DNA of 64,000 bases, taken from Thermoproteota archaeon (GTDB lineage: Archaea; Thermoproteota; Nitrososphaeria_A; Caldarchaeales; Calditenuaceae). Numbering within the stretch: the first letter of the stretch is position 1; every line of letters begins with the position of its first letter. The translations under genes were made by a program, and so were the position numbers. The notes under the pieces were generated by a model. That model saw nothing but the letters and a program-made list of their open reading frames with translations, was not told the DNA's origin and searched no databases. The stretch spans positions 22,916 to 86,915 of the forward strand of contig JAUQPZ010000003.1 in NCBI GenBank assembly GCA_030550155.1, given 5' to 3'. Below, piece after piece: positions 56,574 through 61,986 of this stretch.

Positions 56574-56719
56574 ATCTATGCAGAGAGAATATTTTCCGTG
56601 AGATATTTAGCAATTTAGGCTGATGTTGACGGGCTAGCTGTTGAAGTTGGATCGGCGAGAAAGGTAGACGGGTTTATGTTTTTGTGGAATATTTTAGAGC
56701 CGCCGTTTAGGTTCTATAA

Positions 56720-56983
56720 TTGTTGAATCCGCCCCTGATATTCTCTGGCATGCTAGTGGCGATCACGGGCTTTATCCTCTTTTTTGTGGGTCTACAGGCT
56801 TTCTGGATACTGGCGGCTGTGGGTGTCTTGATGGTTGTTGTGGGCTTCTTCACAGAGAAGCGGGAGGAGGTGGTGCCGGAGAATCCTGGGATGAAGTTCT
56901 GCTGGTATTGTCTTAGGGAGATTCCGGTGGAGGCTGAGGAGTGTATGTATTGTGGGCTGAGGCAGGAGCCTCTCAAGAAGTAG
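56720..56983 (+). CDS. small two-TM membrane protein with C-terminal zinc ribbon
   Basis: 87 aa. Two hydrophobic helices then CWYCLREIPVEAEECMYCG. Its 3' end overlaps the 3' end of the CPBP pseudogene on the opposite strand. Confidence 0.4.
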   Translation: MLNPPLIFSGMLVAITGFILFFVGLQAFWILAAVGVLMVVVGFFTEKREEVVPENPGMKFCWYCLREIPVEAEECMYCGLRQEPLKK

Positions 56984-57814
56984 AGGGCTCCGCCTGCTGC
57001 GGTTTTGCACGGAGGAGGGCGATGTGGGTTATCGCCGACGTTACCGCCCAAGCGGCTATTCCGGCTGGGCCGAGACCTCCGAGCTCGCGCTGCAGAGTCG
57101 TCACGAGAATTGTTAGGCCCCATACCGCGTTTATGGTCCCGTGGAGGGAGGCGGCGGGCAGCACGCTGGATGAGCTGCGGCGGACGTCTGCGTGTGGGAG
57201 GGAGAGGGAGGCGGTGAAGGCTATGAACAGGGCTGCTCCGAGTAGTCTGTTCTCGGGATAGTTGTGCCCGAGGAGTATTATTCCTGAGGCGTGCCAGAGC
57301 CCCCAGACCAAGCCCACGACGAGGGCGGCCCTCACCGCTCCGAGTCCCCGCTCCTCCAGCTCGACCTGTAGATAGCCTCTCCAGCCAATCTCCTCGCCCA
57401 GAGCGAAGAGGGTGTTAATCGTGAGAGCCGCCAGATAAGAGTTCAGAAGTATCAGGGCAATAGGGCCTTATCAGTTATCTGGGGCGGCGTCAGGCCCCGG
57501 AGAGGCTCGAGGGTGAAGAAGCCCATGGACGCTGTGATGAGGATGTAGAAAAGGAGCGCGGCGAAAACTATCAGTGGGGAGGCGAGGAAGTAGATGAAGA
57601 CCCTCATGCCGAGGCGCAGAGACCTCCTCAACACGCCGGGGCCGGCCACGAGAACGGCCGAGGCCGCGCGCGTATACATCCTTGCGGCGCCCCAGACCAG
57701 GGTTGCGAGGCTGTCCGTCAGCCCGCCTAGCAAGTAGGCTGCGGCATCGATGAGCCCCGCGGGAAGCATAGAGAGCGCAGAGTAGGCGATAATCCTGCGT
57801 AGGCTTGTGTCCAT
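56973..57814 (-). pseudogene. CPBP (CAAX protease / Abi) family intramembrane metalloprotease, interrupted by a frameshift
   Basis: ORF 57452..57814 encodes N-terminal TM helices. Translating upstream of ORF 56973..57335 in its own frame gives ...FALGEEIGWRGYLQVELEER... (motif 1, EExxxR), and that ORF contains GLWHA (motif 2) and HGTIN (motif 3). The two segments are in different frames, with stop codons near 57452 and ~57468. Confidence 0.7.
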
Positions 57815-57858
57815 GCGGCAGGGAGGGCCCGCTTGGATATAAGTGTGAGGGCCTGTTT

Positions 57859-59199
57859 CTAGGGGAGCCGCTGAGCGGCCGCGTAAATCCGCTCTGCAGC
57901 CTCGGTTATTCTCAGACCGTAGAGGCCGGGGATGTAGCTCTCGAGAACGTCGCTGAGCGGCTCAAACCAGACTCTCCTCACCCGGTCCCCCAAGCCTTTG
58001 TAGCCCTTCATGACTCCTATGATTGAGCCCACGGTTGCTCCGTTGCAGTCTGTGTCGAGGCCGCAGCTCACGGCCATCGTTATCGACCTGGTGTAGTCTC
58101 CCCCGCCCCAGAGGAGTGCTGCGGCGACTATCGCTGCGTTAGGTACTGTGTGGACTGGGTGGTATTGGCGTAGCTTGTCCTCCATGAGGCTTACTACTTC
58201 TTCCCAGCCAGCGCCCCTCCTCCAAGCATCTACGACCAGCTCCACAGCCTCTCTCAGCCTACACCTCTCAGGTATGACGGATATTCCAGCATCAATAACC
58301 CTCTCCACATCATCCTCGACAAAGGCCCACGCAATCATCCCCGCAACCATCATCTCGCCGTAGACACCATTCTTGACATGGCTTAGTGCAGCGTCTCTGT
58401 AGGCGAGCTCGGAGGCCCTAAGAGGGCCGCCGGGGCAGACATATCCCCACAGGTCTGCCCTAATCTGGGCGCCGATCCATTCCCTGTAGGGGTTCATGTG
58501 GAGGGCGGTCTCGGGCGGTTCGAGACAGTTCACCAGGTTCCTGTAGGCTGCTCTCTCGGCGGTGTAGACTCCGGCGTATGGGAGGTTCTCAAGCCACTCC
58601 TGGCCGATGTCTAGGCTGTTGAAGTCTCCGCCTCTCTTCTCGACTACGCGGAGATTGATGAGCGTGTAGTCGATGTCGTCGTCTCTGAGGACTCTGTCGA
58701 TGTTTCCCGCCGTGGCCTTGAGGATGTGGCTGCGCCGCAGCTCCTCCTCCGTGAAGAAGGCTGGGGGAACAAATCCCTCCAGCGCCTTTATGCCTCGGCT
58801 CGAGAATCTCTGCGAGACTCCTCTCCAGCCCTGAGAGATTCCGATGAACTCGAGGGGCTTGCCCAGCATGTTCCCAGCGCACCTGCCGAAGAACCCGCCT
58901 AGTATCTTGTCTCTAACCATCTCGGGAATTGGCGTCTCCTCTCTCCGCCAGCCCGGGGAGCAGGCCCTTATCTCGCTGAGCTCGGACGGCTCGTGATACG
59001 GATACCCCCTCCTCATGGGCAGCGATCTCAGCTCGCCGAAGATCTCCTCTGCAACCCTTGAACCACCTTCCGCCAGTCTTCTAAGTAGCTCGTCCCTCAT
59101 GACCCCCCTTAGTTCCCTGCCCTCCTCGCCTAGCTGGATAAGCTCATGTTCAAGGAGCTCAAAAGCTTCCGGGCCGACGACACAGCGGCTAGGATGCAC
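57859..59199 (-). CDS. ADP-ribosylglycohydrolase family protein
   Basis: 446 aa. ARH motifs DKILGGFFGRCAGNMLG near the N-terminal core and C-terminal GLDTDCNGATVGSIIG (metal-binding Asp/Thr). The first ~93 residues may be an extension or over-call; an internal Met lies before VRDKILGG. Confidence 0.75.
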   Translation of the reverse strand: MHPSRCVVGPEAFELLEHELIQLGEEGRELRGVMRDELLRRLAEGGSRVAEEIFGELRSLPMRRGYPYHEPSELSEIRACSPGWRREETPIPEMVRDKILGGFFGRCAGNMLGKPLEFIGISQGWRGVSQRFSSRGIKALEGFVPPAFFTEEELRRSHILKATAGNIDRVLRDDDIDYTLINLRVVEKRGGDFNSLDIGQEWLENLPYAGVYTAERAAYRNLVNCLEPPETALHMNPYREWIGAQIRADLWGYVCPGGPLRASELAYRDAALSHVKNGVYGEMMVAGMIAWAFVEDDVERVIDAGISVIPERCRLREAVELVVDAWRRGAGWEEVVSLMEDKLRQYHPVHTVPNAAIVAAALLWGGGDYTRSITMAVSCGLDTDCNGATVGSIIGVMKGYKGLGDRVRRVWFEPLSDVLESYIPGLYGLRITEAAERIYAAAQRLP

Positions 59200-59256: not shown

Positions 59257-61986
59257 ATGCATCAAGCTTCGAGTCCACCGCCCCCCCATAGCCTCCGCTG
59301 CGAATACATGGTGAACCCTGTTGGGCTTGACATTCATAGACCAAGATTCTCTTGGGCTCTTACTCACGGTGAGCGGGGTAGGGTCCAGTCGGCCTACCGG
59401 ATAATAGTCTCTAGCAGTCTCGAGAGTGCGGAGCGTTGTGTCGGAGACATCTGGGATAGTGGGAGAGTAGAGTCGGACCAGTCAACGAATGTGGAGTACG
59501 GTGGCGGGCCGCTTAAGAGCAGATGGAGATATTACTGGAGGGTGAAGTGGTGGGATGATCTGGGGAGGGAGAGCCGGTTCAGCGATACCGCATTTTTCGA
59601 GACAGGCATACTCCATCCAGGTGAGTGGAGGGCTAAGTGGATTACCGGGGGAAGGCTGCTCAGGAGAGAGTTTAGGATAGATGGGAGGGTCAGACGTGCA
59701 CGAGCATACATCTGCGGCCTCGGATACTATGAGCTGCGGATAAATGGTGAGAAGATAGGCGACAGAGTCCTAGACCCTCCCTGGACCGACTACGAGAAAT
59801 TAGCGCTCTATACGGTCTACGACGTGACAGGCAAAGTCAGAGAAGGGGCCAACGCTGTTGCGGTCATGCTGGGGAACGGCAGATACTCGCTTAGGCATGA
59901 GTGGAGGATGGGGGATTTTCAGGTTAAGAGATACAGGGATGCTGAGCCCAAGGTGATTGCAGAGATCTGGGTCTGGCTCGAGGATATGGGCCAGATGGTT
60001 ATCGTGACTGACGAGGATTGGAGGGTCTCGGAAGGCCCGATAGTCTATGACGACATTTACGGCGGCGAGGTCTATGACGCTAGGCTGGAGAGGCCTGGAT
60101 GTGATATGCCCGGATACGACGACTCTGGATGGAGGAGGGCAACGATGGCTGCTCCTCCCTGCGAGGCGCTGCTCTCCTCAGCCACTTCACCACCCATCAG
60201 AAGAGTAAGGCTACACACCCCTAAGAATATACTGAGTCCGCGGCTAGGCGTTTATGTCTTCGACTTCGGCCAGAACTTCTCTGGCTGGGCAAGGCTGAGA
60301 GTCAGCGGCGAGAGGGGGAGGGAGGTTAAGCTCAGATATGCTGAGCTGCTAAACGAGGATGGAACTGTGAACACGGCTCCGAACAGGGCCGCCAAGTCCA
60401 CGGACATTTATGTGCTGAAGGGCGAGGGGCTGGAGGAGTATGAGCCGCGCTTCACCTATCATGGTTTTAGATACGTGGAGCTGACAGGCTACCCGGGGAC
60501 TCCGAACATCGAGAGCCTCACGGGAGTCGAGGTGCACACAGATGTCCCGGCAATAGGCGGGTTCTCATGCTCAAACTCTCTGATAAACGATATCCACCGC
60601 GTCATCATCTGGTCGATATTGAGCAACTTGATGAGTGTGCCGACTGACTGCCCACAGCGGGATGAGAGGCTCGGCTGGATGGGCGACGCTCACTTGGTCG
60701 CAGAGGCTGCGATATTCAACTTCGACATAGCCGCCTTCTATCACAAGTGGCTGAGGGACGTCAGGCTGGCTCAGGCGGAGGATGGAAGCGTCCCCGATGT
60801 CGTCCCGCCCTACTGGATGCTCTACCCCGCAGACCCGGCCTGGGGCTCGGCCTGCACAATAATTCCCTGGCTCCTCCACCTATACTACGGAGATAGGAGA
60901 GCCCTAGAGGAGAACTATGAGATGATGAGGAGATGGGTAAGCTTTCTCGCATCCAAGGCGGAGAACGGCATAGTTAGGCTTAGCAAATACGGCGACTGGT
61001 GTAGGCCGGGCTTCATATCCTCCCCCGAGACACCGGGAGAGCTCGTATCCACGTGGTTCTACTACTACTCGGCGAAGATTGTGGCTGAGGCCGCGAGGGC
61101 GTTGGGCAGAGATGAGGATTGGAGGAGATACTCAGCCTTGGCCGAGGAGATAAAGAAGGCGTTTAACCGAGAGTTCCTAGCGGACGGGCGCTACGGTGTC
61201 GTGAAGCCGTCAGGTCAAACAGCCCCGCTCAGCAGCCAGACCTCCAACACGCTCCCACTCTATCTCGACATAGCCCCGGAAGACAAAGCTCAGAGCATCC
61301 TCAAGAGCCTCCTCGAGGACATAGCCCTGCGGAGGGACTATCACCTCGCCACAGGAATCATCGGAACGAGATACCTTCCTGAGACACTATCAAAGTATGG
61401 TGAGAGCGAGACAGCATACAGGATCCTGAGCCAGACAAGCTATCCCAGCTGGGGATACATGATTAGGGAGGGGGCCACAACGCTCTGGGAGAGGTGGGAG
61501 CTATTAACTGGAAGCGGAATGAACTCCCACAATCACGCGATGTTTGGAAGCATAGACTCGTGGTTCTACAAAGTGGTAGCCGGCATAAACATCGACCCCC
61601 AAGAACCCGGGTTCAAGAGGATAATAGTGAAGCCCCATATCGTCGGAGACCTGAAACATGCCTCCGCGTCGATCAACACTCTCAGGGGGCCGGTCTACTC
61701 GGGCTGGCGAAAGAGCGGCGAGAGACTGGCGGTGGAGGTCTCGATACCGGTTAACAGCGCCGGGTCGATATGGCTACCCGTCAAAGACATAGTTAACCCG
61801 TTGATCTCCGAGGGCGAGACGACTCTGTGGAGGGACGGCCGCTACGTTCCAGGAGTTGAGGGTATAAAATCCGCGCATAGAGAGGGGGATTATGTCGTAT
61901 TAGAAGTCGGCTCAGGCACCTATCACTTCGAGATAGTACCCGGGGCGTCGGCCACTAGAGAATATCGCTCAGAGCCTCTTGGCTGA
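59257..61986 (+). CDS. GH78 alpha-L-rhamnosidase
   Basis: Six-hairpin catalytic domain motifs DCPQRDERLGWMGDAHL and HAMFGSIDSWFYKVVAGI. The N-terminus aligns from ...LRCEYMVNPVGLDIHRPRFSWAL. The ORF track starts at 59146 but overlaps the ARH gene, so the ATG at 59257 (MHQASSPP...) is preferred. Confidence 0.85.
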   Translation: MHQASSPPPPHSLRCEYMVNPVGLDIHRPRFSWALTHGERGRVQSAYRIIVSSSLESAERCVGDIWDSGRVESDQSTNVEYGGGPLKSRWRYYWRVKWWDDLGRESRFSDTAFFETGILHPGEWRAKWITGGRLLRREFRIDGRVRRARAYICGLGYYELRINGEKIGDRVLDPPWTDYEKLALYTVYDVTGKVREGANAVAVMLGNGRYSLRHEWRMGDFQVKRYRDAEPKVIAEIWVWLEDMGQMVIVTDEDWRVSEGPIVYDDIYGGEVYDARLERPGCDMPGYDDSGWRRATMAAPPCEALLSSATSPPIRRVRLHTPKNILSPRLGVYVFDFGQNFSGWARLRVSGERGREVKLRYAELLNEDGTVNTAPNRAAKSTDIYVLKGEGLEEYEPRFTYHGFRYVELTGYPGTPNIESLTGVEVHTDVPAIGGFSCSNSLINDIHRVIIWSILSNLMSVPTDCPQRDERLGWMGDAHLVAEAAIFNFDIAAFYHKWLRDVRLAQAEDGSVPDVVPPYWMLYPADPAWGSACTIIPWLLHLYYGDRRALEENYEMMRRWVSFLASKAENGIVRLSKYGDWCRPGFISSPETPGELVSTWFYYYSAKIVAEAARALGRDEDWRRYSALAEEIKKAFNREFLADGRYGVVKPSGQTAPLSSQTSNTLPLYLDIAPEDKAQSILKSLLEDIALRRDYHLATGIIGTRYLPETLSKYGESETAYRILSQTSYPSWGYMIREGATTLWERWELLTGSGMNSHNHAMFGSIDSWFYKVVAGINIDPQEPGFKRIIVKPHIVGDLKHASASINTLRGPVYSGWRKSGERLAVEVSIPVNSAGSIWLPVKDIVNPLISEGETTLWRDGRYVPGVEGIKSAHREGDYVVLEVGSGTYHFEIVPGASATREYRSEPLG

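Follow-up and report, generated by a model that had tools for sequence, protein, structure and literature searches.

The gene for a CPBP-family intramembrane protease in the window, by which we mean the whole stretch of 64,000 nucleotides that was analysed, is split between two reading frames of the minus strand at a site where a single base is missing. The locus is very probably a recently inactivated unitary pseudogene of a CPBP/Rce1-like glutamic-type intramembrane protease, and its host is a Caldarchaeales-like (Nitrososphaerota, 'Aigarchaeota') hot-spring archaeon. The event is one of ordinary gene decay. The parts of the broken gene are as follows.

57452..57814, minus strand: N-terminal remnant of the CPBP gene, 120 codons and a stop (ATG at 57814, TGA at 57454..57452)
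57457..57462, minus strand: single-base deletion with a -1 frame change, located by DNA alignment and codon comparison
56973..57461, minus strand: C-terminal remnant of the CPBP gene in the -1 frame, 162 codons and a stop

Codons 1-118 of the upstream ORF are homologous to residues 1-118 of the intact orthologues with which it was aligned, and this ORF encodes the N-terminal helices (predicted H3-28, H35-57, and H70-96). In the minus-strand reading, the upstream ORF ends in ...ITDKALLP (TPPQITDKALLP) directly before the stop, and the terminal L-P and the stop codon are out-of-frame read-on past the deletion. The second frame is closed by the stops TGA TAA at 57473..57468, is then open, where it reads GPIALILLNSYLAALTINTLFALGEEIGWRGYLQVELEER..., and continues to the stop at 56975..56973. 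The C-terminal remnant in this frame contains motif 1 (EEIGWR), motif 2 (WGLWHA), and motif 3 (HGTIN). The upstream and downstream frames overlap by 14 nt, and the passage from the former to the latter is a -1 shift, equivalent to the addition of 1 base to the DNA, which yields a product of 280 aa. In the AF2 model of the fused protein, the break at residue 118/119 coincides with the start of the long helix 115-155, which bears motif 1. The earliest ATG, GTG, or TTG of the second frame is GTG 57335, which lies downstream of motif 1, and motif 1 is therefore untranslatable from a canonical start. The stop of the N-terminal fragment overlaps a CTG of the downstream frame (C-TGA), and an ATT is located 2 codons upstream; judged by sequence, rare non-canonical re-initiation may occur there.

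In the public NCBI MAG records, the N-terminal remnant appears as a separate 'hypothetical protein' and the C-terminal part as a 'CPBP family intramembrane glutamic endopeptidase', the CDS of which is given as 162, 153, or 146 aa. By position, these CDS start at ATT (162 aa) or at CTG (153 and 146 aa).

L001:5354-5842, L168:10381-10821, and L169:10354-10842: public CDS of the C-terminal remnant in the NCBI MAG annotations, corresponding to 57461..56973 of the window

The fused 280-aa translation matched the Pfam profile PF02517 with 46.7 bits over profile positions 5-93 of 93, above the gathering cut-off of 22.4 bits. The downstream ORF alone scored 19.8 bits, below the cut-off, and the upstream ORF alone gave no Pfam match. 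In an HMM built only from orthologues (17 homologues, with the window sequence left out), the upstream frame matched positions 3-119 (121 bits, E 2e-36) and the downstream frame matched positions 120-274 (265 bits, E 3e-80), the HMM covering both frames end to end (119|120). Across the 64-kb window, this HMM found nothing besides the two frames. The matches are far beyond chance and confirm the preliminary description, which had taken the two ORFs as co-linear halves of one CPBP gene and had proposed the comparison of the fused protein with PF02517 as a check; its coordinates, translations, and motif calls (EExxxR, WGLWHA, and HGTIN) were also all correct on the minus-strand reading.

In the fused protein, the motifs are E141-E142-x3-R146, W171-x3-H175-A176, and H225-x3-N229, at columns that are invariant in 18 aligned sequences, and motifs 1-3 lie in order on separate helices (115-155, 160-182, and 219-237) of the AF2 model. 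This model (pLDDT 93, pTM 0.88) exhibits an Rce1-type all-helical membrane fold, and its sole significant fold match in the PDB was 4cad, MmRce1 (Foldseek E 4.2e-4, TM 0.53/0.58). Aligned by profile with the MmRce1 (4CAD) sequence, the fused protein has E141/E142 and H175 opposite the EE and WH residues of that enzyme. These results indicate that the restored protein is a clear CPBP/Rce1-like family member by profile, motifs, and fold, which shares with MmRce1 of Methanococcus maripaludis (4CAD, PF02517) the helical-bundle fold and the EExxxR, (F/W)xxxH, and HxxxN motifs. It belongs to an uncharacterised Caldarchaeales/Nitrososphaerota subfamily. The fused protein scored far under every cut-off of the NCBIfam equivalogs (myxosortases and the MmRce1 family), and thus no substrate is assignable. 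In contrast to the members of the CPBP/Rce1 family, the gene here is broken by a 1-nt deletion and is a relic, not a working member. No single uninterrupted frame for the whole CPBP domain was found at the locus, and the stop after 120 codons, together with the lack of a canonical start before motif 1, identifies the locus as a pseudogene derived from a CPBP member.

The full-length homologues of the fusion in the protein collection are 272-286 aa long, with 45-74% identity and 94-99% query coverage, and in their sources they are labelled as CPBP proteases from Nitrososphaerota, Calditenuaceae HR02, or Caldarchaeum; the homologues listed for the fusion query did not include the species' own fragments, but the query with the N-terminal fragment did return its own cluster, which shows that the search does not conceal near-identical matches. 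The closest orthologue, P0001 (72-74% identity), is encoded on L167, directly downstream of an ADP-ribosylglycohydrolase gene. The same adjacency, with an intact CPBP gene following the ADP-ribosylglycohydrolase gene, was observed in three related Caldarchaeales-like species (L167, L172, and L174, the last of these being HR02), and the search for intact orthologues at related loci, which the preliminary description had suggested, thus returned syntenic orthologues of 272-285 aa. All of the orthologues outside the 99.8-99.9%-identical population are uninterrupted. By this comparison of sequences, an intact CPBP gene is the ancestral state.

When the DNA was aligned with that of L167, the window read GGCCCT-ATTG against GGCCCTGATTG, with exactly 1 base missing. 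The codons at the site are CTG ATT in both L167 and L014, and CTA TTG GCC in L172, and the lost base would be either the third position of the Leu codon CTN that precedes ATT or a single G from TTG GCC. Whichever base was lost, the length of the restored protein is exactly that of the orthologue. The proposal in the preliminary description that one single-nucleotide indel separates the fragments, and that a protein of ~280 aa can be restored, therefore holds, whereas the G/C homopolymer context that it assigned to the indel was overstated. The longest base run at 57457-57462 is 3, and base runs of <=3 at the deletion do not constitute a slippage-prone homopolymer.

In the pseudogene reading, the transmembrane helix carrying catalytic motif 1 has lost 1 base at its start. 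Owing to this deletion, translation from ATG 57814 ends after 120 residues (118 native residues followed by L-P), and the truncated product consists of the N-terminal helices only, with zero catalytic residues. The residual 162 codons, with EExxxR, WxxxH, and HxxxN, sit in the -1 frame, and since no canonical start precedes motif 1, the C-terminal part is most likely untranslated. The remnant is now collecting unconstrained substitutions. Neither fragment would be expected to have protease activity, and the C-terminal part is presumably not expressed.

The exact 120-aa truncated product was found on at least 23 contigs, and a one-residue variant of it (P18L) was found on 5 further contigs. The junction was identical in all 10 of the contigs that were fetched from the NCBI (GCA_038829665.1, GCA_038886845.1, and GCA_038740925.1), JGI (3300022541), ENA (ERZ27245615), and Logan (SRR27730014/15/19/49 and SRR7786981) assemblies. 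The fetched loci are 99.8-99.9% identical to the window and have SNPs between them, and these SNP differences indicate that the contigs are separate reconstructions. No intact near-identical allele was found, as the search of the protein collection with the N-terminal fragment gave only the truncated 120-aa cluster. These results indicate that the deletion is real and is fixed in the sampled species-level population.

Among the strains carrying the frameshift, the remnant exhibited five nonsynonymous SNPs (P18L, F137I, A176S, S214R, and Q274*) and one synonymous SNP. A176S hits the invariant motif-2 (WHA) column, and the nonsense mutation Q274* is carried by L168/L171. The C-terminal part accounts for 4 nonsynonymous SNPs, including the nonsense mutation, and 0 synonymous SNPs. 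The 15 flanking genes, in contrast, exhibited 8 nonsynonymous and 22 synonymous SNPs, a difference from the remnant that is significant in a one-sided Fisher test (p = 0.016), although the sample is small, with 6 sites in the remnant and p ~0.02. The SNP density was 7.1 per kb in the remnant and 2.3 per kb in the flanks (p = 0.019), a comparison that is approximate as the coverage is uneven along the flanks. A further amino-acid variant, T->M, was seen in P0131. The skew of the SNPs relative to the flanks indicates that the constraint on the remnant is relaxed: the ratio of nonsynonymous to synonymous SNPs in the remnant fits neutral drift, whereas the flanks are under normal purifying selection.

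In the reference allele, 47 of the 47 invariant residues are kept. The mean identity to the outgroups is 58.2% for the window, compared to 59.8% for the intact sister P0001, with no clear rate acceleration, and the unique deviations at otherwise invariant columns number 3 in the window (P49R, A178G, and P242Q), compared to 3 and 4 in P0002 and P0027, which are both intact. The retention of all of the invariant residues and the lack of a clear rate acceleration indicate that the inactivation was recent. The reference allele, considered by its sequence alone, may be compatible with continued function.

Three further readings, and one that draws on two of them, were weighed against a recent pseudogene. 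It is very unlikely that the locus represents a functional split gene, in which the N-terminal helices and a catalytic C-terminal fragment with its own initiation site come together in the membrane as a two-piece active protease. Such an arrangement would agree with the position of the break at a helix boundary, outside the catalytic core (the helix spans 115-155 in the AF2 model), and with the overlap of the upstream stop with CTG (CTGA), which is akin to ATGA-type termination-reinitiation overlaps. In addition, the C-terminal part is annotated publicly as a CDS of 146-162 aa, with ATT 57461 or CTG 57455 as the initiation candidates in the NCBI annotation. However, zero ATG, GTG, or TTG codons precede motif 1, and the ATT and CTG starts here are annotation rescues; ATT and CTG are exceptional as start codons. 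Direct reading of the sequence upstream revealed no convincing Shine-Dalgarno-like motif, and among the best 120 homologues listed, 0 were of fragment size (120-165 aa). The 4 nonsynonymous versus 0 synonymous SNPs of the C-terminal part also reflect relaxed constraint and thus argue against a working fragment.

The broader notion that the split gene is still expressed, either via non-canonical -1 recoding (GCC-CUA-UUG-CCC-UGA) or via termination-reinitiation at CUGA, is in our estimation highly improbable. If it were true, a full-length or two-piece intramembrane protease would be made at a level set by the recoding efficiency, and the locus would be only the second archaeal case of -1 frameshift-type recoding, as well as the first that lacks a canonical slippery site.

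That programmed -1 ribosomal frameshifting, or another form of recoding, yields a full-length protease from the split gene is extremely unlikely. In the proven archaeal case, fucA1 of Saccharolobus solfataricus, the programmed -1 frameshifting requires the heptamer A-AAA-AAT, the site is accompanied by a flanking putative stem-loop and rare codons, and the full-length product has been demonstrated (PMC1616953). The CPBP locus is like fucA1 in that an archaeal gene consists of two ORFs with a -1 frame change and a short overlap, and the direction needed is the same, -1 (PMC1616953). The split is moreover fixed across the population, every invariant residue is retained in the reference allele, and the stop 3 codons past the shift site could pause ribosomes. 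Unlike fucA1, however, the CPBP junction is without a slippery heptamer or a stable structure and bears population-genetic signs of decay. None of the six zero-frame heptamers over the 14-nt overlap (TGATAAG, TAAGGCC, GGCCCTA, CCTATTG, ATTGCCC, and GCCCTGA) fits X-XXY-YYZ or A-AAG. The RNA downstream of the site is not unusually stable (z = +1.0), the 126 nt from the site onwards having an MFE of -34.4 kcal/mol compared to a shuffled mean of -38.0, with 173 of 200 shuffles folding at least as well. The lack of both a slippery heptamer and a stable downstream structure argues against programmed -1 frameshifting. Furthermore, the site has no A/T run on which transcription could slip, the ORFs of the closest orthologues are plain and uninterrupted, and the strain SNPs, 5 nonsynonymous versus 1 synonymous, include one that creates a nonsense codon and one that alters an invariant column. 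The frameshift was not found in diverged relatives, and purifying selection on the two ORFs was not seen.

That the frameshift arose in sequencing or assembly, or that it is a phase-variable indel and living cells have an intact gene at least sometimes, is exceedingly improbable: single-base indels arise commonly in assembly and the site is rich in G+C, but the same junction was recovered in 10 contigs from different assemblers and different samples with SNPs between the contigs, no run at the site is longer than 3, and the protein collection has no near-identical N-terminal cluster other than the truncated one. Neither a repeat tract nor a pair of ON and OFF alleles was found, with one allele in 10/10 contigs, and the lack of an intact near-identical allele in the protein collection argues against phase variation. 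Accordingly, among the three causes that the preliminary description had offered, recent pseudogenisation is borne out by the intact syntenic orthologues, the relaxed constraint, and the secondary nonsense mutation among strains, whereas the sequencing or assembly indel is contradicted by the identical junction in independent samples and assemblers, and phase-variable expression finds neither a repeat tract nor an intact near-identical allele in the protein collection.

Recent pseudogenisation also agrees with what is seen in ordinary prokaryotic frameshift pseudogenes. The locus resembles these in having a single-base indel with a premature stop a few codons beyond it, intact sister orthologues, more nonsynonymous polymorphism than expected under constraint, and, in some strains, a second inactivating (nonsense) mutation, and there is no notable difference from them.

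The genes around the pseudogene are in the order MFS, Usp, GH78 rhamnosidase (on the opposite strand), ADP-ribosylglycohydrolase, CPBP, a convergent mini-protein, and GH31, of which the closest are given below together with the spacer upstream of the CPBP gene.

56720/56723..56983, plus strand: mini-protein gene, 86-87 aa, two hydrophobic helices and a CxxC...CxxC zinc-ribbon tail
57815..57858, minus strand: spacer of 44 nt between the ADP-ribosylglycohydrolase stop and the CPBP ATG
57859-59199, minus strand: ADP-ribosylglycohydrolase, 446 aa, directly upstream of CPBP
59257-61986, plus strand: GH78 rhamnosidase, upstream of ADP-ribosylglycohydrolase in the window and in L174

The mini-protein gene and the CPBP gene converge, with an overlap of 11 nt at the 3' end of the latter, and the 2-TM zinc-ribbon mini-protein of the preliminary description is real as described. 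Its Pfam matches are to zinc ribbons under threshold only (E 0.006). The mini-protein is 84% identical to its L172 orthologue, compared to 63% for CPBP in the same species pair, and its SNPs among strains are 3 synonymous and 0 nonsynonymous. The mini-protein gene is intact, conserved, and separate from the pseudogene. A small ORF (82-106 aa, no Pfam match; 86-87 aa in L172, as in the window) occupies the equivalent convergent position in L172, L174, and L176, where it overlaps or abuts the end of the CPBP gene, the L174 and L176 ORFs being equated by position.

L172:5833-6093: small convergent ORF
L174:4348-4596: small convergent ORF
L176:4312-4632: small convergent ORF

The mini-protein may work together with the protease, or it may just be a neighbour that has persisted.

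For the ADP-ribosylglycohydrolase gene, the adjacency to CPBP is missing in the more distant contexts L175 and L176, and a functional link between ADP-ribosylglycohydrolase and CPBP is not claimed. The order in L176 is MFS-Usp-CPBP, which suggests that the rhamnosidase/ADP-ribosylglycohydrolase pair was inserted between Usp and CPBP in the clade of the window. In the spacer, TTATAT at 57842..57837 lies ~25 nt ahead of the CPBP start codon and is a candidate archaeal TATA box; the transcript would then be leaderless, and if this is so, the truncated 120-aa N-terminal fragment may still be made.

The window differs from all of the fetched contigs that cover positions 59195 and 56923. The difference at 59195 is H2R, in codon 2 of the long ADP-ribosylglycohydrolase ORF, and that at 56923 is a synonymous site in the mini-protein. 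These window-only differences indicate that the window comes from another strain or assembly of the same population. An apparent 227-bp insertion between the mini-protein gene and GH31 in L168 was rejected as a scaffold gap.

L168:11221-11318: scaffold gap of 98 N between contig ends that are duplicated (window 56595-56723), an assembly artefact of GCA_038886845.1

The bacterial Abi/CPBP proteins of bacteriocin immunity and abortive infection belong to the same Pfam superfamily and have the same motifs. In contrast to the bacterial proteins, the host here is archaeal, and the neighbours are glycosidases (GH78 and GH31), an ADP-ribosylglycohydrolase, Usp, and an MFS transporter; genes for bacteriocins, phage defence, or mobile elements were not found at the locus. 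The role in bacteriocin immunity or abortive infection that had been attached to the gene is a generic association of the bacterial family and is unsupported at this archaeal locus.

Overall, the locus is a clean, well-controlled case of recent gene loss that has been fixed in an uncultured hot-spring archaeal population. For annotation hygiene, the two CDS listed in the public MAGs should be flagged as one frameshifted pseudogene. For the organism, the loss means that this lineage can do without the CPBP protease.
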